Positions 46,633-63,712 of a DNA stretch of 64,000 nt are shown here, piece by piece. A program made the position numbers and the translations under genes. How positions within the stretch are numbered: the first letter of the stretch is position 1; every line of letters starts with the position of its first letter. The notes beneath the pieces are model-generated. The model saw nothing but the letters and a program-made list of their open reading frames with translations, made no database searches and had not been told where the DNA came from. This DNA comes from Candidatus Latescibacterota bacterium (GTDB lineage: Bacteria; Latescibacterota; UBA2968; UBA8231). The DNA lies in NCBI GenBank assembly GCA_965217585.1, contig OZ244561.1, positions 2,944,001 through 3,008,000 on the forward strand, in the 5' to 3' direction.

Positions 46633-46824
46633 GCTGCCTCCGGTCTGGGTCTCGTCATCCAAGGCGACGGGGATGCGGGTGTTGACCGCTTGGGCGTCGT
46701 GCGGCTGCTAAAAGAGTCGATAGCTTAATAGACTGTCAAGGTAAGCTACAGTTCTGGGAGCCGTATTTACAGGGGCTATGGCGAAGGAAGATTGCGGCGC
46801 GATCGTAAAGTAGAGTCTTATCTA

Positions 46825-46948
46825 GGGCATCCGCGACGGCCTCTCCAACGAGGTGGTGGACAACCCGGTCGAAATGGTGGGACGCGGCGATCTGCTGTTG
46901 TGCGTGCAGCGGCAGAGCGCGTCCGGGCAGATCGAGCCGCTGAATTAG
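46825..46948 (+). pseudogene. Second copy of the thiN 3' end
   Basis: GIRDGLSNEVVDNPVE..GRGDLLLCVQR..SGQIEPLN* matches 45543-45669 with small indels. Confidence 0.85.
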
Positions 46949-47607
46949 TCGCTGTCCCAAGCCAGCGATAGCTGAATCCCAACCTGCCCGGTCCCCAATT
47001 CCAAGCGCGGCGCGATCTCCACTCCCTGCTCCTGCTTTTCGTCGCCCAACGCGAGCAACTGCCACCCAGCGAGGGCAAAGGCCGCCGCAGTCATCCAGCT
47101 CATCTGGCTTTGGGTGTCGCGGCTGTTGGCGCGGTCCAAAAAGCGCTCGGCTTCTTGCGGCGTGCTGGCCTTTTGGTAGCGCCGATAAGCGTCGTCGCCC
47201 TGCTGGCGAAAGTCCCAGCTTTTGACGAGCAGTATCGCGCTCCCGCTGCAAAGGGCCCAGCCCCAAGCGCGGCGCGACGTCATCCAGCCACGATCTGCGC
47301 CCCTTACCGACCATGCCACCGCCCCTAAACCCATCGCCCCCATCACCACCGCCCGCGTGTCGAATCGTCGGCGCTCGTCGTAGAAGATCTGCGCGTCGCT
47401 GCTGGACTCTGTCCGCTCGTAGCGCTCGTCGGCCCGGTTGGCTTCCCGCCGCGCCTGATAGGCTTCGCTGAGCAGCCAGCCGCCGGCACCCAGCGCGATA
47501 TAGCTGGCTACTTTGCGCGAGAGGCGCGGACCATCCGCTCGCGCCTCTCCGAGCGACGCCAGCGTCAGGATGCAGGCCAGTGTTAGAATGCTCCGTCTGT
47601 TGTTCAC
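46945..47607 (-). CDS. Secreted/membrane hypothetical protein with two internal repeats
   Basis: Signal peptide and two hydrophobic-helix / ..Y..Y..A / hydrophobic-helix units; GTG overlaps the TolC stop. Confidence 0.7.
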   Translation of the reverse strand: MNNRRSILTLACILTLASLGEARADGPRLSRKVASYIALGAGGWLLSEAYQARREANRADERYERTESSSDAQIFYDERRRFDTRAVVMGAMGLGAVAWSVRGADRGWMTSRRAWGWALCSGSAILLVKSWDFRQQGDDAYRRYQKASTPQEAERFLDRANSRDTQSQMSWMTAAAFALAGWQLLALGDEKQEQGVEIAPRLELGTGQVGIQLSLAWDSD

Positions 47608-48983
47608 CGCAGGTCTCCACGCCCTCTGGCGGCGACGGGTTTCCCCACCGCTTGGTCGAGCTGGGCTAGCTGGATGTGGTAGTTGAAAATGGCCTGGACT
47701 AAGTCGTTGCGCGCCGCAAAAAGGCTCGCTTGCGCTTGGAGCCGCTCTAGCTGCGTTCCGGTGGACAAAGCATAGCGCTCCTGCGCCAGCTTGTAGCTTT
47801 CCTCGGCAGCGCTGACCGCGATCTGGTTGGCCTCAATGCTGCGCCGATATAGCTCGATATTGAGGAAGGCTCTTTTAATATCCAGTGCCACCTGCCGCTT
47901 AGCTTGGTCGAAGTCTTCCATGCGCTGGCGGTAGTTCAGCTTTTGCGACTTGATGGAATTCTGGGTGCTCAAGCGGTTGAATAACGGCAGCCCCAGGCTC
48001 ACGCTGAACGAGTAGCCGTAGTTTTTCAAAAAGAGATCTTCCGGCCCCGCAAACGTCTCGTCGGCCCGCAGTCGCCAGTTGTAGCCGGTGCTCATGCTCA
48101 CGGTCGGGTGCAGCAACTCGTAGCGGGTCCCGCGCAGGTCCTCCTCGGCTTGCAGCAATAAAAACTCCTGCGACCGCAAGTCCGGGCGGTGCTCCAGCGC
48201 CAAGGCCAAGGCTTCCTCGTAGCTCAGCGCGAGCGGTACCATCGCAAATTCCTCCTCGACCGGCACAATCGGTTCGTAGGTCCGCAAGCCCATGGCAAAG
48301 GCCAAGTCGGCACCAGTCACCGCGACGCTGTTTTCGCGGTCGATTAGGTTCGCCCGTGCGCTGGCCAACGCGGCCCGCTCCGTCAGCACATCCGACAGGG
48401 GCACCGAGCGGACCTCGAAGAGCGTCTCGGCCCGGCGCAGGCTCTCCTCTGAGACCCGCACCTGCTCGGTCTGTACCTTCATCAGTTCAATAGCCTGCAA
48501 TAAGCTGAAGTATCCCTGCTTGACCTCAAAGACTACTTGCTGCTGGCTCGTACTCAGGTCCATCTCGGCCGCCTTGTGCCCCAGTTTGCTCGACGCTAGG
48601 GCGGTCCAGTTGCCGCGATTGTACAGGTTCATACTGAAGCCGGTACCCAGCGACTGCGAGCCGCTGGAGGTGCTCTCGCCGAGGGTAGAGGTGACCTCGC
48701 CGGTGGCTGGATCGACAAAGGATCCCTCGCGCGGCCCGGAGACGCTGCGCGACATCCCGTAGGAGGCGCTGATCGATGGTAGAAAGGCATTGCGAGCGTT
48801 CCCGATTTGGATCGCCGCGGCTTCGATATTGGAGCGGCCCTGGATGACCGCGGCGCTCTGCTCTAGGGCGATGGCGATGCAGTCGTCCATGCTCAAGCGG
48901 AGCGCCGCTGGCTCTGCTGCGCCGCTGGGGCGCGTCAGGACCCCCACCACCAGCCAGCAGAAAACGGTGTGTTTACTTTTCAC
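47604..48983 (-). CDS. TolC-family outer membrane factor
   Basis: LSMDDCIAIAL, FLPSIS, ALEHRPDL, LPLFN and QLDQAVG motifs; GTG at 48983 overlaps the upstream stop. Confidence 0.9.
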   Translation of the reverse strand: MKSKHTVFCWLVVGVLTRPSGAAEPAALRLSMDDCIAIALEQSAAVIQGRSNIEAAAIQIGNARNAFLPSISASYGMSRSVSGPREGSFVDPATGEVTSTLGESTSSGSQSLGTGFSMNLYNRGNWTALASSKLGHKAAEMDLSTSQQQVVFEVKQGYFSLLQAIELMKVQTEQVRVSEESLRRAETLFEVRSVPLSDVLTERAALASARANLIDRENSVAVTGADLAFAMGLRTYEPIVPVEEEFAMVPLALSYEEALALALEHRPDLRSQEFLLLQAEEDLRGTRYELLHPTVSMSTGYNWRLRADETFAGPEDLFLKNYGYSFSVSLGLPLFNRLSTQNSIKSQKLNYRQRMEDFDQAKRQVALDIKRAFLNIELYRRSIEANQIAVSAAEESYKLAQERYALSTGTQLERLQAQASLFAARNDLVQAIFNYHIQLAQLDQAVGKPVAARGRGDLR

Positions 48984-49699
48984 GAGAGCAGCCTTTCTCG
49001 CTGCGCCATCTGCCGCAGCCCCGAAAAGAGCAAGAGCGCACCGCCGAGCACCAGCGTCGCGCGGTTGAGCGCGACCATCTCGGCCCACACCGCATCGTCT
49101 AGGCCCAGCGGCAGGCTAAAGGGATTTAAGAAGAGAAAGTAAGCGGTCTCCGCCAGCGACTCGGCGCTCAGCAATACCGCGACCAGTACTCCCAGCGAAA
49201 GCATCCCGGCCGTATTGCTGCTCTTGCAGAGCACCGAAAAGAAGAAGGTCAGATTGGCGATCAGAAACGCCGGTGCGAACGCATTGAGTCCGCCCAGCGC
49301 GAACGGAAATTCGGCGAAGAGGAAATAGGCCGCCGCACTCATGCCCAGCAGGGTCGCCGCCAATAGCAGGTAAACGGCCACCATCCGCAGCGCCCAGATC
49401 CCGTAGTGCGAGGTGGAAGTGCTAAAGAGCGCCTCCAGCGTCCGGCGGTCGCGCTCGCCGGCCACCAGATCCATCGCTAGGTAAATCGCCAAGACCGCGC
49501 CGGGGATCTCCACCAGCACGTAGGGGGCCTGCCCGGCGCTGAACCCCTCGTCCGGCCGGAACACCGCCAGTGCGTAGAGCACTCCGTAGTATGTGGCGAT
49601 ACCCAAAACCATGAGCAGCAGCTTGCGGTGAAAGACGATCCGCGCACTGAGCCAGCACTGGGCGACTAAGCTGGCAAACAGGGTGGTCCAAGTCAGCAC
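48980..49699 (-). CDS. ABC-2 type permease
   Basis: About six TM helices; LVAGERDRRTLEALFS motif; GTG at 49699 overlaps the upstream stop. Confidence 0.8.
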   Translation of the reverse strand: MLTWTTLFASLVAQCWLSARIVFHRKLLLMVLGIATYYGVLYALAVFRPDEGFSAGQAPYVLVEIPGAVLAIYLAMDLVAGERDRRTLEALFSTSTSHYGIWALRMVAVYLLLAATLLGMSAAAYFLFAEFPFALGGLNAFAPAFLIANLTFFFSVLCKSSNTAGMLSLGVLVAVLLSAESLAETAYFLFLNPFSLPLGLDDAVWAEMVALNRATLVLGGALLLFSGLRQMAQRERLLS

Positions 49700-52600
49700 G
49701 AGGGCACGTTCTCCCGTCTCAACACATAGATGTAGGCGTCCTCCAGCGTCGGCTCGACGGGCACGGCCGCCAGCCCCGGCACGGCGTCCGCAGCCAGAAA
49801 CCGCACGCGAATGCCGGCGGGTGCGCGCAAGTGCGAGATCACGTTGACCTGCTCGCCGATCCGGGATAGCTCCTCTTCGGCGACGACCGCCTCCCACGCA
49901 TGGCCTTGCGCCAGATCGCGCATGGCCTGCGGCGTGCCCTCGTAGAGGATGCGGCCGGCATTGAGCACTGCGAGGCGGTTGCAGCTACCGGAAATATCCT
50001 CGACGATGTGGGTCGAGAAAAGGACGATCCGCTCCTGACTGATCCGCGCCAACAGGTTGCGGAAGCGAATCCGCTCCACCGGATCTAGGCCCGCGGTCGG
50101 CTCGTCAACGACGATGATCTGCGGCAGATGCAGCAGGGTCTGCGCGATCCCCACGCGCTGCTTCATGCCGCCGGAAAACGAGCCGATCAGGTCGTCTTGC
50201 CGCCCGTCGAGATTGACCTGTTCGAGGCTGGCACCGACCCGGGCGCGGCGCAGGGCCGGGTCGCGGAATCCCTCCAGCAGGGCGCGATACTCTAGATACT
50301 GATAGGCCGTCAGGTGCTCGTAGAGGCCGAAGTGCTGGGGCAAATAGCCGATCACCCCCTGCACTGGGCCGCGGCGGGTGACATTGACGCCGTCAAAGGC
50401 CACCGATCCCGAGCTTGGCTCCAGCACTTGCGATATGATCCGCATCAGCGTCGTCTTGCCGGCCCCGTTGGGGCCGAGCAGGCCGAACATGCCGCGCCCG
50501 ATCTCCAAGTTGACCCCATAGAGGGCTTGGTATTGCGGCCTTTCCACGCCGATCAGGGGCAGGGCCGCCGCCCCGCGATACGCCCTGCGCACCAGCCACG
50601 CCAGCCGACCTGCCAGCGCCGCCGGATCCACCTCGCCGCGGCGCACCCGGTCGGCCAACAGACGCGCCCCCTGATAGCCCAGCCACACCGCCAGCGAGGC
50701 GACCGTCAGCGAAGGCAGTGCCAAGCGTTGATGTACATAGCCAACCAATAGCAGCGGCACCGCCCATTGCGCCAGCGCGTGCGCCCCCGCGCCCAGACCA
50801 AGCAAAGCCCCCTGCCGCAGCACGTGGGCCACCAAGCCCCACGTCGCCAGCGAGAGCAGGTAGAGCCAGAGCGCGTCCGCAAAGTAGGTGTGTAGAAAGC
50901 CGAGGAGCACCAACAGCGGCAGCTTCCAGCTCAAGCCGTCCTTGATCGCTTTGCGATCTACCGGGTCAATACCTTGAGTCCGCAGTCTTGAGTCGCGGCG
51001 GTCGAAGCGCGTCCACTCCCGGCGGAAGCGCCCGGGGGCACCGTAGATCTTGGTCAGGGTTTGCAGGCGGATCGAATGCACCGCCGGCACCTCGTGCCGC
51101 GCCGCCCGGGCGCGGTAGATCCGCAGGGCAAGCGCGGCCACTCCGAGCAGCAAAAACCACAGCGGCAGCGCCAAGAGCACCGGCCAGAACAGGCTCGCGG
51201 ACTCCATATACAACGCGACCACAGCCGCCGCCGCGACCACAGTCGCCAATCCCACGCCGACGCGGCCGATCCCCCTGAGCCACGCCCGCACCTGATCCAG
51301 CCCCATATAGGCCACCGGCACGAAGATCAGCGTCGAGACCATCGACACCGCCAGCCCCCCCAAGACGGTGATGGCGAAGGGCGGCCAGACCTCGTAGTCG
51401 CCGCCGAAGTCGAGCGCCAAAGGCATCACGCCCAACAGGGTCGTCGCCGAGGTCATCAGGATCGGCCGCACCCTGGAGCGAGCGGCCGCCAGCACCGCCC
51501 GCTCGCGGCGGCAGCCTTCCCGCTCGCGGAGCGTGCCAATGGCGTCGATGAGGATAATGCCGTTGTTGACGGCAATGCCGATCAACACGATAAAGCCCAG
51601 CAGAGCCATCGGCCCCGCCTGCGAGCTTAGCCCGGTGCCCGTCAGCATCAGCGCCCAGCACGAGCCAATCGCCGCGGTCGGCAGGGTGCAAAAGATCAGC
51701 AGCGGCGAGGCGAACGATTCAAAGAGCGAGGCCAGCACCATGTAGGTCAGCACCGCCGCGATCCCCATCATCCAGTAGTAGATCGCATCCGTTGCGACCT
51801 CGGCGATCTCGATGGTGTAGTCGCCGGGCAGCACCAAGTCTTGGACCACTGCCCGCACTTGGTCCCGCGCCGCGTCGAGCAGGGGCTGCGAGTCGAGGAT
51901 TTCGTCTGTGAACTGATAGGAGACCACCACGCGCCGCGCTTGGTCGGTGCGCAGGATACTATTGCGCCCCTCGTCGGTGCGCACCTTGGCCAGCTCCGCA
52001 AGCGGCACATACTCACCCGTACTGGTCAGCACCGGAATGGCCCCAACCCCGGCGCGCCCGGGCCCATCGGCCTCTGGGTCTGCGGTCGGCCGCACCTCGA
52101 TGGGGATCTCGCTGCCGTCGGCCTTGAGGAAATCCGTCTGTGCTGCGAAGCCTTCTGGATTGGCGTTGGCTATCGCGCTCAGGACGGTGTTGACGCGCAG
52201 GTCGTGGTCGAAAAGCGCCAGCGGACGGGGAATCACCTGGATCTCGGGGCCGCTGCGCTGGAGGTCGGGCCGCACGCTGTTGGCGTCGATTTCCTCCAAC
52301 TCTTCGAGCCGATAGGACAAATCGTCGGCGATCATCTGCAACACCGCGAAGTCGTACCCCTTGATCAGCGCCGTCTCTGAGGTGGCCCCCGCCTGCAAGT
52401 TGAAACCCCCGGTCCCCCCGGTCCCCCCGGTCCCCCCCCCGCGTCCGCCACCCCGTCCCCTGCCGCCGCCGAAACTGCTAGCCTGCGGTTCGTAGCCGAT
52501 CAGGGCACCCTGAATTTCCTGCAACTCGCCGTCGAGCTGGTCCTTCAATTCCTCGGCCGACACCCGCTCGGGCCGCTCGTCGCGGTCGAGGAGCATCACC

Positions 52601-54396
52601 GTGACGCTGCCCTGCCCCTCCTGGACGCTGGTCGTAAACCGCTCAATGCCCGGCAGTACTTGCACCGCGTCCTCAATCTGTCGCATCACCTCGTCTGTCG
52701 CATCGAGGGTCGCGCCGTCGGAGAGACTCGCGTACACCGAAAACCGAGTCTCCGCGGCGATGACTTCCTGTTGCAGCAGGAAAAAGAACGCGGCCACCAA
52801 CGTCGCCAGCAGCACCAGGAACACGCCGCAAGCCACTGCGCCCCGATGGCGCAAACTGGCCTTGAGGAACAGCGTGTACCTCCCCATTAGCCTTCCCGTG
52901 CCCAAAGGTGCCGATGCCTGACGCTCGAGCATCCGCGCCGCCAACGCGGGTACCAGCGACAGGGCCACCAGCAGCGAGGCCAGCAGCGGGAAGGTGATCG
53001 CCAGCGCCAACTCGCGCAGAATGTCCTGGAAGTCGCTCTGGATAAAGACTACCGGCAAAAAGACCAGTGCCGTTGTCGCCGTCGCCGCGATCACTGCCTT
53101 GCTCACTTCCTCCGTGCCGTCGCGCGCCGCCTCTACGGGCGATTTGCCCCGCTCGAAGTGCTTGAAGATGCTCTCCATCACCACGATGCTGTTGTCGGTC
53201 AGCATCCCCATCGCCAGTGCCAGCCCGCAGAGCGAGAGCACGTTGAGCGTTAGATCCGAGGCGTACATCAAGTTGAACGTCGCCAGCAGCGAAGCCGGAA
53301 TCGCCAGTAGCAGGATGGCCACAAAGTGCGCATTGCGCAGAAAGAGGAACAGCACCGCCAACCCCAACACCAGCCCGACCAACGCCGCCTGTTTCAGGGT
53401 GTCGAGCGAGTCCTCCATCAGCGCGGCTTGGTTGTTGGTGACGATCAGCGACACACCCTCGGGCGCGAAGTCGCGGTTGAGCTGGGCGATCGCCGTGGCC
53501 ACTGCATCGGCGACCGCGATCAGGTTGGCCTCGTCCTCTTTCTGGATCAGGATCCCCACCGCCGACTGGCCGTTGACCCGGCTCAAGTCCGTGCGCTGCT
53601 GCAACCCGTAACCCACCTCGGCCACATCCCCCAAGCGCAGCGGGATCGACGCGTCGATGAGGGTCTCGTCAATCTGCCGCAAGTCGCCAAACTGCCCCTG
53701 AAAGCTGACCGGAAAGACTTGGCTGCCGTCGTACACCGCGCCGAGATAGACCCGGGGCTGGTTGGCGTCGGCGAGCGCGTTGCGCAGATCGGCCATCGTC
53801 AACTGGTAGGCTTGCAGGCGCTCCGGCTCGGCGACGATCTCCACCGCGCTTTGCCGACCGCCCAATACCTGGGCGCTGACCACCCCTTCGACCGCGGCCA
53901 GCGCGGGGGCGATATGTTCCTCGGTGTAGTCCCTGAGCCAGTTGAGGTCCGCCTCTGCTGCCAGGACCTGCAATTCCATCACCGTCGCGCTCAGATCGTT
54001 CTCGTCGAAGCGCTGCACCGCGATTTGGGTCCGGGCGGGAAAACTTGGTTGCAGGCGGTCCATCCGGCTCTGCACCTGCAAGAGCGCGAATTTCATATCC
54101 GTGCCCGGCTCGTAGGATATCCGCACATTGCCCCGGTTGAGCGAGGCGGTAGAAGTCATTTCCACCACGCCTTCGAGCTGACTTATTTCCTCCTCGACCG
54201 GCATCACCAACTCGCGCTCGACCTGTTCGGGTGCCATGCCCTGCTGCGCGATCGCGACGAAGATCTCGGGGTACACCACCTCGGGCATCAGCTCCACGGG
54301 CAGGCGGTCGAGCGAGATCAGCCCCAACAGCGAGACCGCGGAGAAAAACATCGCCGTCGTCACTGGGCGGCGGATGGAGAAGGCCGACAAGCTCAC
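49693..54396 (-). CDS. RND (AcrB-family) permease fused to a C-terminal ABC ATPase
   Basis: Start VSLSAFSIRRPV at 54396 (GTGA overlap). RND motifs GMLTDNSIVVMES and RVRPILMTS, then GPNGAGKTT, FSGGMKQR, VVDEPT and STH in the same frame. Confidence 0.9.
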   Translation of the reverse strand: MSLSAFSIRRPVTTAMFFSAVSLLGLISLDRLPVELMPEVVYPEIFVAIAQQGMAPEQVERELVMPVEEEISQLEGVVEMTSTASLNRGNVRISYEPGTDMKFALLQVQSRMDRLQPSFPARTQIAVQRFDENDLSATVMELQVLAAEADLNWLRDYTEEHIAPALAAVEGVVSAQVLGGRQSAVEIVAEPERLQAYQLTMADLRNALADANQPRVYLGAVYDGSQVFPVSFQGQFGDLRQIDETLIDASIPLRLGDVAEVGYGLQQRTDLSRVNGQSAVGILIQKEDEANLIAVADAVATAIAQLNRDFAPEGVSLIVTNNQAALMEDSLDTLKQAALVGLVLGLAVLFLFLRNAHFVAILLLAIPASLLATFNLMYASDLTLNVLSLCGLALAMGMLTDNSIVVMESIFKHFERGKSPVEAARDGTEEVSKAVIAATATTALVFLPVVFIQSDFQDILRELALAITFPLLASLLVALSLVPALAARMLERQASAPLGTGRLMGRYTLFLKASLRHRGAVACGVFLVLLATLVAAFFFLLQQEVIAAETRFSVYASLSDGATLDATDEVMRQIEDAVQVLPGIERFTTSVQEGQGSVTVMLLDRDERPERVSAEELKDQLDGELQEIQGALIGYEPQASSFGGGRGRGGGRGGGTGGTGGTGGFNLQAGATSETALIKGYDFAVLQMIADDLSYRLEELEEIDANSVRPDLQRSGPEIQVIPRPLALFDHDLRVNTVLSAIANANPEGFAAQTDFLKADGSEIPIEVRPTADPEADGPGRAGVGAIPVLTSTGEYVPLAELAKVRTDEGRNSILRTDQARRVVVSYQFTDEILDSQPLLDAARDQVRAVVQDLVLPGDYTIEIAEVATDAIYYWMMGIAAVLTYMVLASLFESFASPLLIFCTLPTAAIGSCWALMLTGTGLSSQAGPMALLGFIVLIGIAVNNGIILIDAIGTLREREGCRRERAVLAAARSRVRPILMTSATTLLGVMPLALDFGGDYEVWPPFAITVLGGLAVSMVSTLIFVPVAYMGLDQVRAWLRGIGRVGVGLATVVAAAAVVALYMESASLFWPVLLALPLWFLLLGVAALALRIYRARAARHEVPAVHSIRLQTLTKIYGAPGRFRREWTRFDRRDSRLRTQGIDPVDRKAIKDGLSWKLPLLVLLGFLHTYFADALWLYLLSLATWGLVAHVLRQGALLGLGAGAHALAQWAVPLLLVGYVHQRLALPSLTVASLAVWLGYQGARLLADRVRRGEVDPAALAGRLAWLVRRAYRGAAALPLIGVERPQYQALYGVNLEIGRGMFGLLGPNGAGKTTLMRIISQVLEPSSGSVAFDGVNVTRRGPVQGVIGYLPQHFGLYEHLTAYQYLEYRALLEGFRDPALRRARVGASLEQVNLDGRQDDLIGSFSGGMKQRVGIAQTLLHLPQIIVVDEPTAGLDPVERIRFRNLLARISQERIVLFSTHIVEDISGSCNRLAVLNAGRILYEGTPQAMRDLAQGHAWEAVVAEEELSRIGEQVNVISHLRAPAGIRVRFLAADAVPGLAAVPVEPTLEDAYIYVLRRENVPSC

Positions 54397-57300
54397 CGCA
54401 GCCGCTCCACCGTCTCGTAGGCCACGGGAATGACCACCAGCGTCATCAGCGTCGCGGAAATAAGTCCGCCGATCACCGCAATCGCCATCGGCGCCCGCAA
54501 GGCCGCCCCTTCGCCCACCCCGATTGCCATCGGCGCGAGCGCCAAAATCGTGGTTGCCGTCGTCATCAGGATCGGCCGCAGCCGGTCCTGCGCGCCCTGC
54601 AGCACGGCCGCGCGCACCGTCGGCAACTGCGCCCGTAGCTGGTTGATGCGATCGACCAATACGATAGAGTCGTTGACCGCGATCCCGCCCAGCATGATGA
54701 TGCCGATATAGGCCATTGCGCTCAGCGGCTCGCCCAGCCCCCAGAAGGCCCACACCACGCCGACGCCAGCCAGCGGCACGGTCAGCATCACGGTAAAGGG
54801 GTGCAGCAGCGACTCAAAAAGCGAGGCCATCACCATGTACACCAGCACCACCGAGAGCAGCAGCGCGAACTGCAAGTCGGCAAAGGACTCCTGTCGCTCG
54901 CGCTCCTCGCCGCCGATGGCGATCCGATAACCACGGGGCAGGGCCATGCTATTGACGACCTGCTCGACCTGCCCGATGGCCTCGCCCAACACCGCGCCTT
55001 CGACCAGATAACCCGCCACCCGCCCGACCCGGCGCTGGTCCTCGCGCAAAATCTCGCGCGGCCCTTCGACAAGTATGGGATCCGACAAATCGCCCAGAGC
55101 CAGAATCGCCCCATCGGGCGCATCAATCCGCAACTGCGGCAGCTCGCGCAAGTCGAAGCGCGCAAAACCGACGCGGATGTCGCGCGAGCGTTGGTCTTTG
55201 GACAACTCGCCGATTACCTCGCCCGACAGCCGGCGCTCCAGCGCCTGCACGATGGTCGCGACGGTCAGCCCGCTGGCGACGACCGCGTCCTCGCGCAGCC
55301 GCAGGTCGATCTCAGGTTGGCCGCCTTGGAAGTTCGAAGTGACGTTGTACACGCTCGGCAGCTCCTCCAAGCGGGCGGCGAGATCGGCGCACAGGCGGCG
55401 CAACACTTCCACCTCGTCGCCAATAATCTCCACTTGGACCGGGGCCGTCCGCTCGCCCAGCACTCCTTCGAGCGCGGTCTCGTGTAGCTGGTATTGCACG
55501 TCTAGTTCGGGGATTTGCGCCAATTGCGCGTCAACGACCTCGACCAGTTGCGGCAGGTTGCGACTGGTCTGCTGGGCCAGCGCGACCGACAGCGTGGCGC
55601 GGTTGGGTCCGGTAGGGTCGCCGATGTTGGCCAGCCGCGCCGGGTCCACGCCCGCCCGGGCGTACACTCCGGCCACATCGTCGCCGCCTACCTCGCCGAT
55701 GATCTCCCCCACCCGCTTGGCCACCCGATCGGTCAGCTCCAGCCGCGACCCTTGCGCCAGTGACAACTCCACGTGGAAAAGCCCTTGGTCTTCGCGCGGG
55801 ATAAACTCGGTGGGGATTGCGCGGGCGACGTAGGCCGTGCCCGCGCCCGTTGCGGCCACCAGCAACAAAACCACTCCCTTGTGGTCGAGCACCGCGTTGA
55901 GCAAAGCGCGGAAGCGCAACCAGCGCTGCTCGGTTGTCGCCCCGCCGCGCCCGCGCAAAAAACGCGAGGTTAGCATCGGCACGGTCATCATCGCCACCGC
56001 CAGTGACGAGACGAGCGAAAAAGCCACGGTCCAGGCTTGGTCCTTAAACAGTTCGCTGGTCAGCCCTTGCAGGTAAACGATCGGCAGGAAAACCGACACG
56101 GTCGTCAGCGTCGAGGCCGTAATCGCCACCCCGACCTCGCTGGCTCCCTTTGTCGAAGCTTGGCGCGCGTCTTCGCCCCGCTCGAGGTGGCGGTAGATAT
56201 TCTCAATGACCACGATCGCGTTATCGACCAGCATCCCCGCCCCTAGCGCCAAGCCGCCGAGGGTCATGATATTGAGCGTCAGATCCTCGAAATACATCAG
56301 GGTAAAGGTCGCTAGAATTGAAATCGGAATCGCCAGGCCGATCACCAAAGTCGCCGTCCACGAGCGCAAGAAAAACAGCAATACCCCCACCGCCAACACC
56401 GCCCCGTGCAGCGCCGCCTCTTTGACCTCGGCTACGGCCTCCTCGATAAAGCGCGCTTGGTTTTCAACCACTGCAAAGCGCAACTCGGGCAAGTCTTGGT
56501 CGAGCTCGCCGATGGATTCGAGCACCCGGTTGATGACCTGTACCGTATTGCTACCGGCCTCCTTGTAGAGCGCCAAGCCGATGCACTCGACTCCGTCGAG
56601 CCGCACGATCGTCTCCCGTTCCGCGTACTCCAGCGCCACCCGTCCCACTTCGCGCACGTAAACCGGCACCTGCAACCCCGCCTCGACGCCTGCCCCCTGC
56701 CGCGCCCCGACGATCACATTGCGCACGTCCGCTAGGTCTTTGAGCCGCCCCAGCCCCTTGACCTGGTACGATTGCTGCGCCTCGCGCAAGGTCCCCCCGG
56801 ACACGTCCTCATTGGCCGAGGTAATCGCCGCGATGACTTGGTCGGCGTCCTGCCCAAAGGCTTCGAGCAGGTACGGATCCAACGTCACCCGGATTTCTTT
56901 TTCCGCATCTCCTTCGATGTCTGCCGAGGCCACCCCGGCGAGTGCTTCCAGCTTGGGCTTGACCACGGTCTCGACCGCGCCCAACAGCTCGTCGAGGTCG
57001 GCCAACTCCGTCGCCGAGACCGCGATCCGCATCACCGGCAGCGCCTGCGGGTCCTCCTGAATGACATCGAGCGTTTCAATATCCTCGTCGGTGGCGTACA
57101 CCCCCATCTTCTTCTGCACGTCGATCAGGGCAAAATCCATATCCGCTTCCCAATCGAACTCGGCCACCACCACGGACTGCCCTGAGCGGGTGATCGAATA
57201 GACCCGAGCGACTCCGCTGATCGTGCTGATGTCGCGCTCCAGCCGCCGCGTATATTGCTCTTCCACCTCCTGCGGCGCCTTGCCGGGCACCTGCAAGTCA

Positions 57301-57440
57301 ACTGTGATGACCGGCGTGTGCATGTTGGGCAGCAGGTCGGTCCCCAATTTGCTTAGGGAGATCGCCCCCAACAGCGCCACCGCGAGGGTCAGCATCAACA
57401 CGGTGACGGGATAGCGGGTGGAAAACTCAGGTAGCGACAT
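54393..57440 (-). CDS. RND (AcrB-family) permease
   Basis: MSLPEFSTRYPV start at 57440; GMLVDNAIVVIENI, MASLFES and RLRPILMTT motifs. Confidence 0.93.
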   Translation of the reverse strand: MSLPEFSTRYPVTVLMLTLAVALLGAISLSKLGTDLLPNMHTPVITVDLQVPGKAPQEVEEQYTRRLERDISTISGVARVYSITRSGQSVVVAEFDWEADMDFALIDVQKKMGVYATDEDIETLDVIQEDPQALPVMRIAVSATELADLDELLGAVETVVKPKLEALAGVASADIEGDAEKEIRVTLDPYLLEAFGQDADQVIAAITSANEDVSGGTLREAQQSYQVKGLGRLKDLADVRNVIVGARQGAGVEAGLQVPVYVREVGRVALEYAERETIVRLDGVECIGLALYKEAGSNTVQVINRVLESIGELDQDLPELRFAVVENQARFIEEAVAEVKEAALHGAVLAVGVLLFFLRSWTATLVIGLAIPISILATFTLMYFEDLTLNIMTLGGLALGAGMLVDNAIVVIENIYRHLERGEDARQASTKGASEVGVAITASTLTTVSVFLPIVYLQGLTSELFKDQAWTVAFSLVSSLAVAMMTVPMLTSRFLRGRGGATTEQRWLRFRALLNAVLDHKGVVLLLVAATGAGTAYVARAIPTEFIPREDQGLFHVELSLAQGSRLELTDRVAKRVGEIIGEVGGDDVAGVYARAGVDPARLANIGDPTGPNRATLSVALAQQTSRNLPQLVEVVDAQLAQIPELDVQYQLHETALEGVLGERTAPVQVEIIGDEVEVLRRLCADLAARLEELPSVYNVTSNFQGGQPEIDLRLREDAVVASGLTVATIVQALERRLSGEVIGELSKDQRSRDIRVGFARFDLRELPQLRIDAPDGAILALGDLSDPILVEGPREILREDQRRVGRVAGYLVEGAVLGEAIGQVEQVVNSMALPRGYRIAIGGEERERQESFADLQFALLLSVVLVYMVMASLFESLLHPFTVMLTVPLAGVGVVWAFWGLGEPLSAMAYIGIIMLGGIAVNDSIVLVDRINQLRAQLPTVRAAVLQGAQDRLRPILMTTATTILALAPMAIGVGEGAALRAPMAIAVIGGLISATLMTLVVIPVAYETVERLR

Positions 57441-57450
57441 AATGCGAGTA

Positions 57451-58548
57451 CTATCTCCCCGGCCCGCCCCGACCACCTGCCCCCCTAGCCTCTCCGGTCC
57501 CCGTTACACTGACCCGCGTCCGCGACCGCAGGGTCTCGTAGTTGCTCGTAATCAGCCGCTCCCCCTCCTCCACGCCGCGCAGCACCTCCACGAACGTTTC
57601 GTCCTCTAGCCCGGTCTCAATTTCCCGCATCTGCGCCCGTGCGCTTTCTTCGACGAATACGACCTCGCGATTCCTCCTCACTAGCACCAACTCGCGCGGT
57701 ACCAGCACCACGTCGGCGTGCGACTCGACCACGATCTCGGCCTTGACGAACATCCCTGGCCGCAGCAAGTGCTCGGGGTTGTCTATCGCCGCCACCGCGC
57801 GAAAGGTCCGCGTCGCGGCATCCACCACCGGGTCAACCGCGACGATGCGGCCGGCGAACACCTCGTCCGGGTAGGAGTAATCGACCGCCCGCACGGGCTG
57901 ATCCAGCGCGATGTGGCGGATTTGCGAGTTGGGAATCTGCAAGTCGAGCAGCACCGCGCTGTAATCGACGATGCGGCAGATCTGGATGTTCGCCTCGACC
58001 AGCGTCTGCTCGCTGGCGTCGGTGAACTCGCTGAGCACCCCGGAGATCGGGGCGGTAATTGCGGTCTTGCCGATCTGGACCAAGGCGTCGTCGTAGTCCG
58101 ACTGCGCGTCGGCCAAATCCTTGCGCGCCGCTTCGACATCGAACTGGGTCACCAAGCCGCGCTCGACTAGGACTTCTTGTTCGGCGAGGGTTTGGCGCGC
58201 GTTCTGCACGGCCAGCTTGCGCGCCTCCAGCCGGGCACCGACCACCAGTTCCTCGTTGTCGAGGCGGGCGAGCACTTGGCCCTGCTGCACGGCCATCCCC
58301 TCGGTCGGCTTGCGCCCGTCGCCTAGTTGGACCAGCGACAGGAACCCCCGCGTCTCGGTGACCACCACTGCTTCCTGCACTGACCGCAGGGTGCCGGTGG
58401 AGGTAACGACGGACTCGATGGTCCCCAACCCCACCGGCTGCACGGTGACCGGGACCGTCAAATCGGCCGTCTGCTGGACGGTCTCGCTTTCGCAGCCGAT
58501 TAGCAACAGGAGCGCCCATGCCGAGGCGCATAGGATTGTATATCGCAT
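57451..58548 (-). CDS. RND periplasmic adaptor (MFP) lipoprotein
   Basis: Lipobox LIGC; ITAPISG, VDAATRT and LRPGMF motifs. Confidence 0.92.
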   Translation of the reverse strand: MRYTILCASAWALLLLIGCESETVQQTADLTVPVTVQPVGLGTIESVVTSTGTLRSVQEAVVVTETRGFLSLVQLGDGRKPTEGMAVQQGQVLARLDNEELVVGARLEARKLAVQNARQTLAEQEVLVERGLVTQFDVEAARKDLADAQSDYDDALVQIGKTAITAPISGVLSEFTDASEQTLVEANIQICRIVDYSAVLLDLQIPNSQIRHIALDQPVRAVDYSYPDEVFAGRIVAVDPVVDAATRTFRAVAAIDNPEHLLRPGMFVKAEIVVESHADVVLVPRELVLVRRNREVVFVEESARAQMREIETGLEDETFVEVLRGVEEGERLITSNYETLRSRTRVSVTGTGEARGAGGRGGPGR

Positions 58549-58635
58549 ATTTACCTCAGAGCAGGGCAAGCACAAGGGCTGCCCCGACAAGATTTGTTGG
58601 TATAGATGCTTTAGGATGTGCCCTACGGATATGTC

Positions 58636-61600
58636 TCAAAATACCTTGTTCAACCAACGGGTAATAGCGCTCGGTTGCTGCCGCCCGCCACCGCGACCGC
58701 CGCGACCGCCGCGACCGCCGCGACCGCGCCAATTGCCGAAAGACCCCACATCTTCCTCGTAGGCGGCCTCTGGGTTGTCTGGGTCAATCCAGCGCCAGCG
58801 CACTGCATCGGCGTAGAGTTGGCCGCTGGCTTGGTCGGACAGCTCGACCCGCGCCCTTTCGCCTTCGGCAAAGTGAAATCGCCCCAGCAAATTCCAGCCG
58901 CCTTGCAGCGTCTCGCTCTTGAGCGCGAGAGTATCTACCACACCCCCATGCGCGACCGCGAGCGAAAACGATTCGGCCAAGCTCAACCCAAAGCGCCGAC
59001 TAAACCGCGACGGCACGAAATAGTACGCCACGTCGTAGAAGCCCGCCTTGGGCAGCGTGGTCGTCCACACCGCCGGCTGCGCCCCATCGCCGGGCGGCTT
59101 CCAGCGGAAATTGGTCTCGTAGCGGCCGAAGGCAAGAGGCAGCTCCTGCACCTGCCAGTTGTCGCCTCTAAGCCCGGGGCGCAGGTAGCGTTGCACCCGG
59201 CGGATCGGCATGGAAAAGCCCTCGTCGTCGTTGTCGACTACGATCTCCGAGAAAAAGTTTTCCTCGTCTTCTACGACTCGCACGTAGGATTTGGGATAGC
59301 CGGCAAAGACCTGCTCGGGGATGCTCAAGGCGGCGACAATCGGCCGCTGGTTTTTGGCCAAAAACGGCTCGACCATCACCCGGAACGGCCGTGCAAAAAG
59401 CACCATGGACACCTCGACCTCCTGCCCGCCTTCAATGGCAATCGCCTTTGCGGCTTGGTCCTCGCGCCCAAGGGCCTGCACCTCGACAAAGCCGCGGCCC
59501 GGCTCGCCGTTTTTGATCCGCACGATCACCTGGTACACCACTGCGCCCCAGCCGTCGTCCATCTTCTTGGCCGTCGCCCGGGTCAGGGTATAGCCCGGCA
59601 CGTGGGTTCCGTAGATCCAGTCGTGGACTAGCTGCTGCACGTCGATCTTCTGGCGGCCAACTTCCCCGTCGGGGACGACCGCATCCTCAAAATCGGCAAA
59701 GGAGACCTGCTGGTACTTGTTGTTCTCGTCAAAGGTGCCGACCGCTTCGATAAATTGGTCGGCCCCCAGCACCGACTTGACGACCCGGAAGATGGACAGG
59801 CTCTTGGCTTTGAGGATCGACCGGTAGAGGGCGGGTTCGGCGGCTTTGTCCATTTCCGCCAGCGAGTGCTGCTGCATCTCTACCACCAGCGTGTCCCAAG
59901 CCGGGCCGGTGTTAGCGGCGGGCCGGGGGGCACCGCCGGGGCCGCCGCCCCGAGAGCGCATCATGCTGCTGATCATCCGCGCCATTCCGCCGCTCATCCG
60001 GCCGCCCCAGCGGCTCGAAAACATCGCCATCCGCAAGTCGGCGCTGACGTCTTCCTGCATGTAGAGCGGCAACCCGCGCGCGACTAGGTCGGCGTGCTCG
60101 CCGCCGAAGCCGCGGTCAAAGGACCATAGCTGCACCAGTGGGCTGCGAAACAGGCCGCTACGCCCTCCTTCGGGACTCAAGAAATCCTGGAAGAGTGCCC
60201 CGACCAGCACGTCTTTTTTGGCTTGCGCCTCGTCTTGGTCGCCGCGCCGCCGCGCCATCCGCGCATCAAAGTCGCGCTGGAAGCGGTGGCCCATCAACAC
60301 GTCCTCCTCAATCATCAGCACCCCTGGCTGCACTAGGCCACCGCGCTCCTCCCAGCCCTCGTAGTACCACTGCACCAAGAAGGGCACCTCCACCAGCGAG
60401 AGCCTCGGGTACGAGTATTTCAGCCCCGTCTCCTGCTCCATCGCGTCGAAAAGCTGGTCGATGGTCTCTACTACTTTGTCGGGAGCGTCGGCGAAAAAGC
60501 GCACCGGGCGCAGGTGGGCCGGATGGACATAGAGGGCGAACTCGACCTCGCGGACCGTGGTCTTATAGACCTCGTAGCGGCCGGCGTGTAGAGAAAAAAG
60601 CGGCACCGGATAATCCACCTGCCACTGCGTGCGGACGCGCCCGCCTTGGTCCTCTTGGGCTATGGGTCGCCCCTGCGTGACCACCTCCAGCCCAGCGGGC
60701 ACCGACACCGCGATCTCTGCCGTGGCAAACGAAGGCGGCGGCGGCACTTGCGGGTGGTAGGCTACCCCGGCGATGGGATACCAGCCGCTGCGTGGGGGCA
60801 AAAAGACCGATTCGCCGCGGATCCAGGCCGTCAGGTCGCCCTTGATAAACGGCCACTTGTTCTTGTGCAGCCGCACCTCGTCGCGCAGCAGATCAAAGCC
60901 TTGGCGGTCGATGTCGCCGTCGTAGGCCAGCGTCAAGGTCTGCTCAGCCCCGGCGGCCAGCGGCGCGGCGACCCGGATCACGGCCGCACCCCGCTTCCAC
61001 CCCAACTCGTTGCCGGCCGCATCCTGCACCGACCGCAGCGTCAAGCCGGGGTTGAGCGCAAAAATCAGCGTATCCAGCGCGCCGTCGTGGTCGTTGTACA
61101 ATCGCAACTGGGCCTTGGCCGCCAGCGGCGCATCCTCGCCAGCCAACGCGACCTCCAGCCGGTAGTGCGCCACCTGCGGTACCGGCGCGTCTGCGTAGCG
61201 ATATTGCTCGGCGAGCAGGCGCTGGCGATAGGCTTGGTTGGCTTGGTCTTGGGCGTCGATGTGCTGATACAGCCCCACCGCCGCCAACAGCCCCACCCCG
61301 GCCATGCCCCGGCCGACCCAAGCCCATCCCAGCGACTGGGACAGGCGCGGATAGCGCTCTATCGACAGGCCAAAAAAGAACAGCCCGAGGGCTAAGTAAA
61401 AAAGCCGCTGGTCGATCACCCGCGATATATCGCCCAAGCCGATCATGTCCGAGTAGAAAAGCGGGGCGAAAAAGGCCCCAAAGTCCCACCAGCCGCCGTA
61501 GCCCTCGCCGAGGTAAAACAACACCGCGAGCGCGTAGGCCATAGTCAGCAGGGCGACAGCCGTCTGGTGCCGCAACACAGCGCCTAAAAAGAAGGTCAGG

Positions 61601-62094
61601 GCCGACATGTACAGCAGCGCCGGCAGGGTCATCACCAGCAGGTACAGCAGATAGGGCCGCAGCGTGAACGGCGCGTCGAGCAGGCTGATCTTGGCCGCTT
61701 GGACGGCCACCGTCAAAACCAGCACCGCCAAGCTCAAGGTCAGCAGTGCCCCGAGGACCCCGAGGTACTTGCCGATGACCAGTTCGGCGGTCGCTATCGG
61801 CCGCCCGGCGATCACCTCGTGGACCCCGGCCCGCTCGTCGGCGGCGCGGAAGTCGCCGACGATAAAGGCGATCACGACCGCCTGTACATAGCTATAGACG
61901 TAAAAGGGGACAAACGCCCCCATGCCCAGCGCCGAGCTGAACTCGATCCCCCGCGCTTCGAGCACGGCTAAGCCGACGCCAATCAGCAGCGGCAGCGCGA
62001 CCCCGATGCTGCCGAGGATGCGGAAGCGGGTGGTCCGCAAGAGCAGCATCCGCTCGTAGCGGGCCACGCCGAGGATGTTGTGGACGGCGCGCAT
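58636..62094 (-). CDS. ABC-2 permease fused to an M1-aminopeptidase-like domain (no HExxH) and a golvesin/Xly CBD-like C-terminal domain
   Basis: N-terminal TMs (ARYE, VIGKYLG); LNPGL, WYP and YPRLSLVEVP; C-terminal VVDNDD...GWNLLGRF...ADAVRW. Confidence 0.8.
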   Translation of the reverse strand: MRAVHNILGVARYERMLLLRTTRFRILGSIGVALPLLIGVGLAVLEARGIEFSSALGMGAFVPFYVYSYVQAVVIAFIVGDFRAADERAGVHEVIAGRPIATAELVIGKYLGVLGALLTLSLAVLVLTVAVQAAKISLLDAPFTLRPYLLYLLVMTLPALLYMSALTFFLGAVLRHQTAVALLTMAYALAVLFYLGEGYGGWWDFGAFFAPLFYSDMIGLGDISRVIDQRLFYLALGLFFFGLSIERYPRLSQSLGWAWVGRGMAGVGLLAAVGLYQHIDAQDQANQAYRQRLLAEQYRYADAPVPQVAHYRLEVALAGEDAPLAAKAQLRLYNDHDGALDTLIFALNPGLTLRSVQDAAGNELGWKRGAAVIRVAAPLAAGAEQTLTLAYDGDIDRQGFDLLRDEVRLHKNKWPFIKGDLTAWIRGESVFLPPRSGWYPIAGVAYHPQVPPPPSFATAEIAVSVPAGLEVVTQGRPIAQEDQGGRVRTQWQVDYPVPLFSLHAGRYEVYKTTVREVEFALYVHPAHLRPVRFFADAPDKVVETIDQLFDAMEQETGLKYSYPRLSLVEVPFLVQWYYEGWEERGGLVQPGVLMIEEDVLMGHRFQRDFDARMARRRGDQDEAQAKKDVLVGALFQDFLSPEGGRSGLFRSPLVQLWSFDRGFGGEHADLVARGLPLYMQEDVSADLRMAMFSSRWGGRMSGGMARMISSMMRSRGGGPGGAPRPAANTGPAWDTLVVEMQQHSLAEMDKAAEPALYRSILKAKSLSIFRVVKSVLGADQFIEAVGTFDENNKYQQVSFADFEDAVVPDGEVGRQKIDVQQLVHDWIYGTHVPGYTLTRATAKKMDDGWGAVVYQVIVRIKNGEPGRGFVEVQALGREDQAAKAIAIEGGQEVEVSMVLFARPFRVMVEPFLAKNQRPIVAALSIPEQVFAGYPKSYVRVVEDEENFFSEIVVDNDDEGFSMPIRRVQRYLRPGLRGDNWQVQELPLAFGRYETNFRWKPPGDGAQPAVWTTTLPKAGFYDVAYYFVPSRFSRRFGLSLAESFSLAVAHGGVVDTLALKSETLQGGWNLLGRFHFAEGERARVELSDQASGQLYADAVRWRWIDPDNPEAAYEEDVGSFGNWRGRGGRGGRGGRGGGRQQPSAITRWLNKVF

Positions 62095-62099: not shown

Positions 62100-62972
62100 T
62101 TAGGCCGATCCCATAAAATAGATATAGGCGTCTTCGAGGCTGGGCGCGGTCGGCACGGCACCCGGCGGCGGTGCTGCGTCGCCGACGATCCTGAGCGCCA
62201 TGCCGACGCCGTCGGCGCTGATGTTGACCACGCTAAAGCGGCTGGCGATGGCCTCAAACCCGTCGTCGTCGGTCTGCAAAAGCCAGGTTTTGCCCTCGGC
62301 CTTGGCGACGAAGTCCGCGGGTGCGCCGTGGAAGCGCAGCCGTCCCTGATGCAATACGGCCAAGTCCTCGCAGGTGCTCGAAATATCGCCGACGATGTGG
62401 GTCGAGATGAGAATGGTGCGGCTGGCGCTCAGCCTCCCCAAAATGGCCCGGAAGCGGATCCGCTCCTCTGGGTCAAGCCCGACGGTCGGCTCATCGACGA
62501 TGATAAACTCAGGGTCGGCCAAAATCACCTGCGCGATGCCAAGCCGCCGCCGCATCCCCCCCGAAAAGGTGCCGGTCTTGCGCTCGCGCACCTCGTAGAG
62601 ACCCACGTCCTCCAAAGCTTGGGCGACCCTTTCGCGGCGCTGCCGCTGGCCGTGCAACCCGCCGAGCCGCCCCATGTAGTCGAGGAATTCCCAAGCCGAA
62701 AGCTGCGGGTACGCGCCGAAGTGCTGCGGCAAGTAGCCGAGCCGCCGCCGCACCTCGGCGCGGTCCTTTTGCAAGTCCCAGCCGTCGATCTCCACCGCGC
62801 CCGCGCTGGGCACCATCTGGGTGGAGAGAATTTTGATCAGCGTGGTCTTACCCGCGCCGTTGGGTCCTAAGAGACCAAACGTCCCGTGGCGGATCTCCAA
62901 GCTCAGGTCAGCAAGCGCCGGAACCTCGTTGCGGCCATAGGTCTTGCTCAGGTTTTGGATGCGTATTCTCAA
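62100..62972 (-). CDS. ABC transporter ATP-binding protein
   Basis: GPNGAGKTT, FSGGMRRR, IVDEPT, STH and PSLEDAY motifs; TTG overlaps the upstream stop. Confidence 0.93.
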   Translation of the reverse strand: MRIRIQNLSKTYGRNEVPALADLSLEIRHGTFGLLGPNGAGKTTLIKILSTQMVPSAGAVEIDGWDLQKDRAEVRRRLGYLPQHFGAYPQLSAWEFLDYMGRLGGLHGQRQRRERVAQALEDVGLYEVRERKTGTFSGGMRRRLGIAQVILADPEFIIVDEPTVGLDPEERIRFRAILGRLSASRTILISTHIVGDISSTCEDLAVLHQGRLRFHGAPADFVAKAEGKTWLLQTDDDGFEAIASRFSVVNISADGVGMALRIVGDAAPPPGAVPTAPSLEDAYIYFMGSA

Positions 62973-63430: not shown

Positions 63431-63583
63431 ACAATCCTCCACGTAAAAGGTTGGGATGAAACTACAGACATTAGACACCCCGTCCCTCCGATCCATTCCC
63501 GCCTTTCGCCCGATAGTGGGTGCTGATGGATAAAGGGCCAGTAAGGCGGAGAACGCAAGAAGGCCCTCTTGCGCGGGACGGAT

Positions 63584-63712
63584 CTCCTCGGTTTTACGGG
63601 ACGGCGCACCGACCACTTGCTGTGCAACCCGGTCGAAATTCGGGTCGGGCGCGGCGACTTGTTGCTGTACGGGCCGCGGGAAGGAGGCGCTGGCGAAACT
63701 TTGGTGAGATGA
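63584..63712 (+). pseudogene. Third thiN remnant with an internal 240-bp in-frame deletion
   Basis: 63584-63612 is identical to 45298-45326. LLGFTGRRTDHLL is joined at CAA to NPVEIRVGRGDLLL (45579 onward). Confidence 0.85.

Follow-up and report, generated by a model that had tools for sequence, protein, structure and literature searches.

Resistance-nodulation-division (RND) pumps are the textbook proton-driven and ATP-binding cassette (ABC) transporters the textbook ATP-driven efflux systems, and the two are treated as separate or, at most, as loosely cooperating. A gene that joins them covalently is described here from a Candidatus Latescibacterota bacterium, on a 64,000-nucleotide stretch of contig OZ244561.1 (assembly GCA_965217585.1, positions 2,944,001 to 3,008,000 of the forward strand), the whole of which is called the window. 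The encoded protein consists, in order, of an AcrB-like RND pump (RND2; the unfused paralogue directly upstream is RND1), two extra hydrophobic helices, the segment IRLQTLTKIYG, an insert of 171 amino acids (aa) and an otherwise complete ABC ATPase, which is thus split by the insert.

On the pump side, the locus resembles the MdtBC-type tandem RND systems in that two AcrB-like paralogues stand behind an adaptor gene with an OEP channel in the operon, and both RND1 and RND2 have MdtB (9lyq_B) as their best solved relative. However, one of the two paralogues here bears a C-terminal ATPase, and the charged residues in transmembrane helices (TM) 4 and 10 differ from those of MdtB. MacAB-TolC likewise combines an ABC ATPase with a periplasmic adaptor and an outer-membrane channel, and the MacB ATPase (5lj9_B) superposes on our model of the fused ATPase with Z 26.8; MacB, however, has its own four-helix TM domain and a periplasmic domain, no RND component and an unsplit ATPase. 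On the ATPase side, the best NCBIfam and structural matches are to DrrA/GldA/NosF-like proteins, and here, too, a separate gene for a six-helix ABC-2 permease lies downstream. Those ATPases are nevertheless uninterrupted, soluble and unfused, and the fused ATPase scores far under their cut-offs.

Two described systems carry extra structure at the site where the present ATPase is split. Wzt-type exporters have a "gate helix" at the cytosolic membrane interface, inserted between strands beta1 and beta2; in the Wzt/TagH type, this short helix has a conserved Tyr in a basic pocket (PMC6379404). The Wzt/TarH/KpsT type is like the fused ATPase in having additional beta1-beta2 structure beside an ABC-2-type (type V) permease, the site being compared by the published description only (PMC6379404), and the base of the present insert (model residues 78-79, numbered as given below) also lies at a predicted permease interface. 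However, the gate helix is one short helix, whereas the insert spans 162-239 aa across the family, with four hydrophobic and two basic helices, in an ATPase fused to an RND pump. The regulatory insertion of nucleotide-binding domain (NBD) 1 of CFTR, residues 404-435, is located "between strands 1 and 2" (PMC2217481), which is the same beta1-beta2 site. That segment is about 30 aa long, soluble, mobile and phosphorylated, in contrast to the present insert of about 170 aa, which is hydrophobic and confidently helical in the model. The parts of the system are familiar; the covalent RND-ABC union and the split ATPase are not. A literature search, with subscription journals and bioRxiv supplements outside its scope, found in the portions of text available to it no publication on an RND-ABC fusion or on a membrane insert in an ABC ATPase.

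Architecture and predicted fold of the fused protein

The fused gene and its parts, all on the minus strand, are as follows (residue numbers are those of the open reading frame, ORF).

49693..54396, minus: fused gene, RND2 followed by TM13-TM14 and the split ABC ATPase; 1567 aa plus stop; Pfam ACR_tran and ABC_tran
51304..54387, minus: AcrB-like RND domain, ORF residues 123-1150; Pfam PF00873, 629 bits, E 1.7e-188
51202..51267, minus: extra helix TM13, ORF residues 1163-1184; model helix 4-25, block pLDDT (predicted local distance difference test) 84-95
51094..51189, minus: extra helix TM14 with its basic, presumably cytoplasmic tail, ORF residues 1189-1220; model helix 30-61
51043..51075, minus: strand beta1 with the A-loop Tyr (SIRLQTLTKIY), ORF residues 1227-1237; AlphaFold2 strand 68-78
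50527..51039, minus: insert between beta1 and beta2, 171 aa, ORF residues 1239-1409
50641..50955, minus: four hydrophobic insert helices in two hairpins, as predicted by AlphaFold2, ORF residues 1267-1371; block pLDDT 91-98
49696..50526, minus: remainder of the ABC ATPase (beta2 onward, with all catalytic motifs) and C-terminal domain, ORF residues 1410-1686

The ORF as listed extends over 49693..54753 (minus strand), and its translation is free of stops throughout. The GTG at 54396-54394 overlaps the TGA of RND1 as GTGA, a 4-nt start/stop overlap; because of this overlap and of the match in length to relatives of about 1570 aa, the true start is most likely this GTG at 54396, giving 1567 aa. 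The PF00873 match of the RND part is nearly full-length (profile positions 2-1018 of 1021), and its best solved relative, MdtB, was found with E 6.9e-85. In the hydropathy profile (Kyte-Doolittle, 19-residue windows), TM12 of the RND part is followed by two further maxima, 2.25 for TM13 and 2.62 for TM14, both of which are also helices in the AlphaFold2 model, so that the two additional TM helices recognised between TM12 and the NBD in the first-pass annotation of this DNA are retained; the tail of TM14 is net positive across the family. No Pfam match was obtained for ORF residues 1151-1413, and the insert is covered by no Pfam or NCBIfam model. The Pfam ABC_tran match (PF00005; ORF residues 1414-1554, 93.9 bits vs. 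a cut-off of 25) begins at profile position 4, i.e., after the insert.

The split is defined by comparison with a stand-alone ABC ATPase encoded in the same operon (62100..62972), the paralogue most closely related to the fused ATPase within the 7.3-Mb genome (45% identity). In BLASTP, residues 3-13 of the stand-alone protein (IRIQNLSKTYG) align to the fused IRLQTLTKIYG (ORF residues 1228-1238, window 51040-51072) with 7/11 identical, and residues 14-287 align to the fused segment past the insert with 126 of 275 identical (46%, E 1e-77). The gap of 171 aa previously reported between IRLQTLTKIYG and ALYGVNLEI (ORF residues 1410-1418, window 50500-50526) is exact and corresponds to ORF residues 1239-1409. 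The span 50527-51075 given for the insertion does include the insert, although it represents strand beta1 plus the insert. Similarly, its placement in the A-loop needs a small correction: the site adjoins the A-loop, the break following directly after the A-loop Tyr-Gly, in the beta1-beta2 connection.

The catalytic motifs, which had been described as intact, were all located: Walker A GPNGAGKTT at 1427-1435, signature FSGGMKQR at 1526-1533, Walker B IIVVDEP at 1546-1552 and H-loop FSTH at 1579-1582. Their key residues are invariant in both a 41- and a 69-sequence alignment; in the latter (model numbering, ORF residue minus 1159), the invariant positions are G268-T276, except P269 and G271 (at least 90% conserved), Q314, S368-G370, D391-E392 and H423. 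Judged by these motifs, the fused ATPase looks catalytically competent. The best NCBIfam matches remain below their curated cut-offs (GldA_ABC_ATP, TIGR03522, 176 bits vs. 402.6; drrA, TIGR01188, 163.2 vs. 312.45), and on these profile scores the protein would resemble the DrrA/GldA/NosF-type ABC-2 ATPases in its working while belonging to neither the GldA nor the DrrA named family.

ORF residues 1160-1686 were modelled with AlphaFold2 from the 69-sequence alignment, giving a mean pLDDT of 92.7 and a predicted template modelling score (pTM) of 0.83. The model consists of helices 4-25 and 30-61 (TM13 and TM14), strand 68-78 (beta1), a basic helix 83-100, hydrophobic helices 108-131, 135-161, 163-185 and 188-212, a second basic helix 226-238 and strand 249-260 (beta2), followed by a normal ATPase and the C-terminal domain. 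The roughly four hydrophobic helices proposed earlier from the letters are thus reproduced in the prediction, flanked by two basic ones. Foldseek gave TM_1403 (4yer), NosF (7osf_B) and ABCA-type ATPases as the best solved matches, and VIA-align gave Z 26-30 for 50 listed ATPase chains, with TM_1403 (4yer), TM0544 (1vpl) and NosF (7osf_B) among the best; the matches to TM_1403 and NosF include the C-terminal domain. In each of the 50 listed VIA-align alignments, the N-terminus of the solved ATPase domain is matched to a start within model residues 64-68, and 1vpl, for instance, aligns over 235 of its 238 residues (chain range 2-239; Z 28.2, root-mean-square deviation 1.6 Å). Since the solved NBDs align from model residues 64-68 onward, the otherwise orphan IRLQTLTKIYG segment is predicted to take the beta1 position in the ATPase sheet, which, at the level of the model, answers in the affirmative the earlier question of whether it packs into the NBD. 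The ATPase fold would then close around the insert, which would exit and re-enter at the membrane-facing edge.

A different assignment of beta1 would make IRLQTLTKIYG a relic or a chance look-alike, leaving the ATPase without a proper beta1 or with LPLIGVERPQY, just before beta2, in its place. An aromatic residue in a weakly beta1-like context (LIGVERPQYQAL) does stand just ahead of beta2. However, AlphaFold2 places the strand at 68-78 and predicts no regular structure at 239-248, the solved NBDs align from model residue 64-68 on, and in the 69 sequences Lys76 is invariant and Tyr78 at least 90% conserved, whereas the Y of PQY is not a conserved column; we regard this assignment as scarcely credible.

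Across the family, the hydrophobic cores of the four insert helices comprise 13, 19, 15 and 15 residues with mean hydropathies of 1.27-1.88. Strongly basic helices flank them (net +4.3 and +3.8), and the short turns at the hairpin tips, between paired helices, are slightly acidic. These properties fit a pair of hairpins inserted into the membrane from its cytoplasmic face. Such an orientation is suggested by the basic flanks together with the basic loops between helices 2 and 3 in the KSB1-type variants, a basic loop being expected on the cytoplasmic side. Modelled alone (residues 1160-1412), the membrane module reached pLDDT 94.0 and pTM 0.68. When it was compared with 48,161 solved chains, only generic three-helix pieces were recovered (MrpF, NuoK, ND4L; Z 9.2-8.1 over 70-83 residues), and no fold is given to the module, as the best Z of 9.2 lies under the tool noise of about 13 for helical bundles. 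A search of the ESM Atlas with residues 1160-1412 gave nothing usable, the top feature score being 0.75, for a hypothetical protein of 43 aa. The family shows that ABC ATPases can take a whole membrane module in their beta1-beta2 connection, which bears on the insertion tolerance of the site also used by the Wzt gate helix and the CFTR insertion.

Conservation, distribution and selection

A database search with residues 1160-1686 returned relatives with 38-88% identity over these residues, and among the matches listed all 120 carry both PF00873 and PF00005. Most are 1540-1600 aa long and cover 93-100% of the query, down to 38% identity; their database names are generic, e.g., "efflux RND transporter permease subunit" or "ATP-binding cassette domain-containing protein". 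Measured from the Gly after beta1 to the Ala-Leu of beta2, an insert of 162-239 aa is present at the same site in 69 of 69 aligned sequences, confirming the conserved insertion site that an alignment of homologues had been proposed to reveal. Within these sequences, Lys76 of LTKIYG is invariant, and Tyr78 and Trp88 are at least 90% conserved, the latter residing in an APGRFRREW motif that opens the insert.

At the level of genomes, the module (residues 1160-1419) is matched in 84 of 168 genomes of the phylum, and the listed matches contain no internal stops. By family, the counts are 21/75, 19/22, 29/31, 13/13 and 1/1, with zero in nine small families. The module is near-universal in three families other than that of the window (19/22, 29/31 and 13/13). 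A degenerate DNA pattern for the YG-x-PGRF-x-REW motif, scanned in contigs of one genome per species, was found at 45 places, 43 of which are preceded by an NLTK-type strand and two hydrophobic helices. The matches L070 and L072 were dismissed as chance, having Ser in place of Arg and no preceding NLTK strand. By record title, the carriers belong to Latescibacterota, KSB1, Acidobacteriota, Gemmatimonadota, Saprospiraceae, Cytophagia, Caldithrix and Zhuqueibacter. The Saprospiraceae carriers include a culture-collection strain, Flavilitoribacter nigricans DSM 23189, for which the reading covered the two helices, beta1 and the first part of the insert. A family that joins RND and ABC components covalently, and threads membrane-type helices through an ATPase fold, is conserved in at least six bacterial lineages.

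Selection on the insert was estimated as dN/dS by the Nei-Gojobori method. In the sole unsaturated same-genus pair (dS 0.25), dN/dS was 0.34 for the insert vs. 0.18 for the ATPase core, and in four further same-genus pairs (dS about 1) it was 0.15-0.19 vs. 0.04-0.10; two more distant, saturated pairs gave 0.28-0.42 for the insert. The insert is under purifying selection, which is weaker than that on the catalytic core. The conservation of both domains and the insert across several phyla, together with purifying selection on the insert, argues that the RND-ABC union is a genuine selected gene fusion, not an accidental read-through, in agreement with the first-pass annotation, which had proposed a membrane-anchored NBD shaped by selection (insert dN/dS 0.15-0.34 over the same-genus pairs).

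An assembly error, the read-through of a lost stop or a decaying gene would offer another account of the open frame. It finds some encouragement in close relatives on long contigs that appear as short pieces (P0272-P0276; a cluster of 91-732 aa), as is the case with frameshift errors. Nevertheless, 84 of 168 genomes and all 120 listed relatives share the uninterrupted frame, insert and core are under purifying selection, and the catalytic motifs are intact, so that this account has next to no chance of being right and is refuted by the conservation.

Short forms of the module were sought among proteins of 289-923 aa, which gave 6 matches only. One of these is a contig-end fragment, and the remainder, which are found on long contigs and cluster with proteins of 91-732 aa, look like split ORFs. 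P0124 (501 aa), for example, clusters with a 1570-aa protein. P0231, however, may be a true unfused form of the module: this 539-aa protein (31% identity, 14.9-kb contig) begins with Met and two hydrophobic helices, continues with beta1 and an insert of some 190 aa, and then has the ATPase. Relatives with 86-92% identity also occur as pieces of 91-732 aa (P0272-P0276 and the cluster members P0279-P0282), on contigs of 0.46-7.4 Mb and one of 9 kb; they look like frameshift-split ORFs of long-read assemblies rather than natural short forms.

Two kinds of variant were found among the fused proteins. Six listed proteins that cover 62-70% of the query (P0049, P0079, P0089, P0090, P0098 and P0122; 1608-1646 aa) have the same layout with an additional loop of 50-100 aa between insert helices 2 and 3; in the KSB1-type proteins this loop is rich in Lys and Arg, and P0049 has one rich in Gly, Ser and Asp. 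A second class of RND-ATPase fusion, with lengths of 1389-1458 aa (P0166, P0169, P0173, P0181, P0185, P0197, P0230 and P0233; also P0264, 1311 aa), is without the extra hydrophobic helices after TM12 and has a conserved WRW-type linker motif. Its beta1-beta2 connection is polar and only 17-55 aa long, and the beta1-beta2 site is therefore variable among fused forms.

The operon and the predicted permease partner

The fused gene belongs to a minus-strand operon with the order 276-aa ORF, stand-alone ATPase, 1152-aa protein, adaptor, RND1, fused gene, 239-aa permease and OEP channel. The genes around the fusion, in this order, are listed below.

62100..62972, minus: stand-alone ABC ATPase paralogue, used as comparator in the first-pass annotation; Pfam ABC_tran
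58636..62094, minus: 1152-aa protein with ABC-2 permease helices, an M1-peptidase-like part and a Golvesin_C domain
57451..58590, minus: periplasmic adaptor (membrane-fusion protein); Pfam HlyD_D23 (82.1 bits) and HlyD_3
54393..57476, minus: RND1, unfused AcrB-like paralogue directly upstream of the fused gene; Pfam ACR_tran, 744.9 bits
48980..49699, minus: ABC-2-type permease, 239 aa; its GTG overlaps the stop of the fused gene as GTGCTGA (7 nt)
47604..49088, minus: outer-membrane factor (TolC-like); Pfam OEP, 218.7 bits; coordinates from the ORF finder

The window thus encodes, with the pump, the adaptor and outer-membrane factor of a tripartite system. Synteny was examined in 12 regions of 20 kb from other genomes, with RND2 identities of 32-91%. 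All 12 preserve the succession adaptor, RND1, RND2-ATPase, permease. Ten of the 12 also encode a relative of the 1152-aa protein upstream of the adaptor (of the other two, one is truncated on that side and one has no such gene), and this protein may belong to the same system. Only 2 of the 12 have an OEP channel gene in the vicinity. The permease itself is only weakly recognised by profiles: ABC2_membrane_2 (PF12679) scores 26.9 bits vs. a cut-off of 27.2, PF12698 18.4 vs. 31.6, and its sole NCBIfam match is weak and partial. The canonical interface predicted for it with the ATPase is in keeping with the ABC-2 class.

The pairing of the ATPase with this permease was examined by complex prediction for the C-terminal fragment and the permease, using own alignments (13 rows) at 1:1 stoichiometry. 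The pair scored 0.65, whereas the best of three controls scored 0.00; the score mark is attained by 116 out of 157 solved complexes and by 2 out of 215 mismatched pairs, counts that hold only roughly with own alignments. The runs agree in at least 84% of contacts, with a partner pLDDT of at least 75. On the ATPase side, the predicted interface comprises model residues 279-343, 379 and 383 (Q-loop and helical subdomain) together with 78-79, and on the permease side it comprises the N-terminal helix 2-25, the loop 85-96 and the C-terminus 234-238; the permease loop region carries the invariant residues D84, E89, L91 and F92. The prediction supports a pairing of the fused ATPase with the downstream permease in which the coupling helix would occupy the canonical Q-loop groove. 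The interface names no insert residue, only 78-79 at the insert base, although this does not show that none touches the permease. The earlier suggestion that the insert may be the coupling element is not supported as written, since the coupling helix of the permease is predicted to lie in the Q-loop groove and no insert residue is named.

How the two transporters may be joined

The reading that we judge the likeliest, with rather better than even confidence for the package as a whole, is a selected fusion with a split ATPase in which the insert and TM13/14 serve as an anchor or tether, making a hard-wired two-stage exporter. The insert would be more an anchor or tether than a classical coupling element, because the coupling helix of the permease is predicted in the usual groove and no insert residue is named at the interface. 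In such an exporter, the AcrB-type RND2 would run on through TM13 and TM14 into the ABC ATPase split by the insert, and the translationally coupled ABC-2 permease would be the partner of the ATPase, bound in the customary manner. Tied to TM12 of the RND pump, TM13, TM14 and the insert would form a membrane-embedded anchor holding the ABC-2 exporter against the TM domain of RND2. The ABC module might then shift the substrate from the cytoplasm or the inner leaflet to the periplasmic side, from where the pump formed by RND1/RND2, the adaptor and the outer-membrane channel would export it from the cell. Sequence anatomy, conservation, synteny and purifying selection are direct results of the analysis, and the packing of beta1, the helical hairpins and the contact of ATPase and permease are predictions. 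We infer the membrane embedding, the topology, the tether role and the two-stage relay, as well as any stoichiometry.

Several observations weigh against this picture. The cores of the insert helices are short (13-19 residues), and their window hydropathy maxima are only 1.5-1.7, compared with 2.2-2.6 for TM13/14, so that the insert helices could either cross the membrane fully or be re-entrant. The pass in complex prediction may reflect likeness to solved transporters, because ABC-2 permeases are textbook partners of such ATPases; it was also based on an alignment of 13 rows and on a 1:1 stoichiometry, which by itself cannot exist. The module is patchily distributed in the genus of the window, where 6 of 30 genomes match it. 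An ABC ATPase must dimerise whereas RND pumps are trimeric, which is a symmetry mismatch. The MdtBC trimer has a 2:1 composition, and our guess, by analogy, would be an RND1(RND2)2 trimer whose two fused subunits supply the ATPase dimer.

The proton-relay residues also weigh against this picture. In AcrB, Asp-Asp in TM4 and Lys in TM10 are essential. Comparison of the two window RNDs (51304-54387 and 54393-57476, both minus strand) and those of loci L029-L040 with MdtB shows that TM4 has Asp-Asn in both RND1 and the fused RND2, compared with Asp-Asp in MdtB. At the TM10 position where MdtB has Lys-Asn, all 13 loci encode Asn-Asn in the fused RND2 and 12 of the 13 encode Asn-Asp in RND1, the search pattern having matched no TM10 in the thirteenth. 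The fused RND therefore departs from the AcrB/MdtB-type relay (TM4 Asp-Asp, TM10 Lys) in all 13 loci. Both paralogues are without the TM10 Lys and the second TM4 Asp, and the fused one is also without the TM10 Asp of RND1.

These missing charges fit a rival explanation in which ATP rather than protons drives RND2: TM13/14 and the insert would pass the motions of the RecA-like subdomain of the ATPase into the RND2 bundle, so that ATP would drive or gate RND2, instead of or beside protons. Besides the Asn-Asn in TM10 of the fused RND (13/13, vs. Asn-Asp in RND1, 12/13), the covalent fusion and its conservation across phyla are in favour of such energy coupling, as is the exit of the insert from the beta1-beta2 connection, which in Wzt shifts by about 8 Å on ATP binding (PMC6379404). 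However, the complex prediction places the ABC-2 permease, whose gene is conserved in 12 of 12 loci, in the canonical groove of the ATPase, and RND1 likewise lacks the Lys and the second Asp, so that the clade may simply use another proton relay. We therefore hold energy coupling of this kind to be unlikely, without thinking it far-fetched. A bolder proposal is that of a single trans-envelope machine in which an ATP motor is mechanically joined to the RND pump, with the bundle passing ATP-driven movement into RND2 and the two fused subunits of an RND1(RND2)2 trimer supplying the ATPase dimer; this is possible yet doubtful. If it were true, the outcome would be either an RND pump that ATP drives or gates, or a hand-over of substrate from ABC to RND that is obligatory. 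A further alternative is that TM13, TM14 and the four insert helices make up the transmembrane domain of an ABC half-transporter, with the downstream permease as an accessory. Six predicted helices are the number typical of such a domain, but the search of the module against the 48,161 solved chains gave no ABC transmembrane fold, the hydrophobic cores of the insert are short, and the predicted groove contacts are made by the conserved loop 85-96 of the permease. Little credence is given to it.

Whether as the tethered two-stage exporter that we favour or otherwise, the family provides a natural system for studying how a substrate could be handed over from an inner-membrane exporter to an RND pump that captures from the periplasm, and for asking whether ATP can power or gate an RND pump. 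Flavilitoribacter nigricans DSM 23189 as a carrier would make experiments feasible, its record having been read over the start of the module (two helices, beta1 and the start of the insert).

Some further features of the locus were noted. The ORFs at the two ends of the operon, 62969-63799 (minus strand, 276 aa) and 46736-47620 (minus strand, 294 aa), have no Pfam or NCBIfam match, and the 294-aa ORF is conserved beside the channel gene in the closest relative locus, L029. The periplasmic part of the fused RND contains a Gly-rich low-complexity run (GGGRGRGGGRGGGTGGTGGTGG) at window positions of about 52450-52530 (minus strand; ORF residues of about 742-767), and the family consensus of the fused RND likewise has Gly clusters at these residues.

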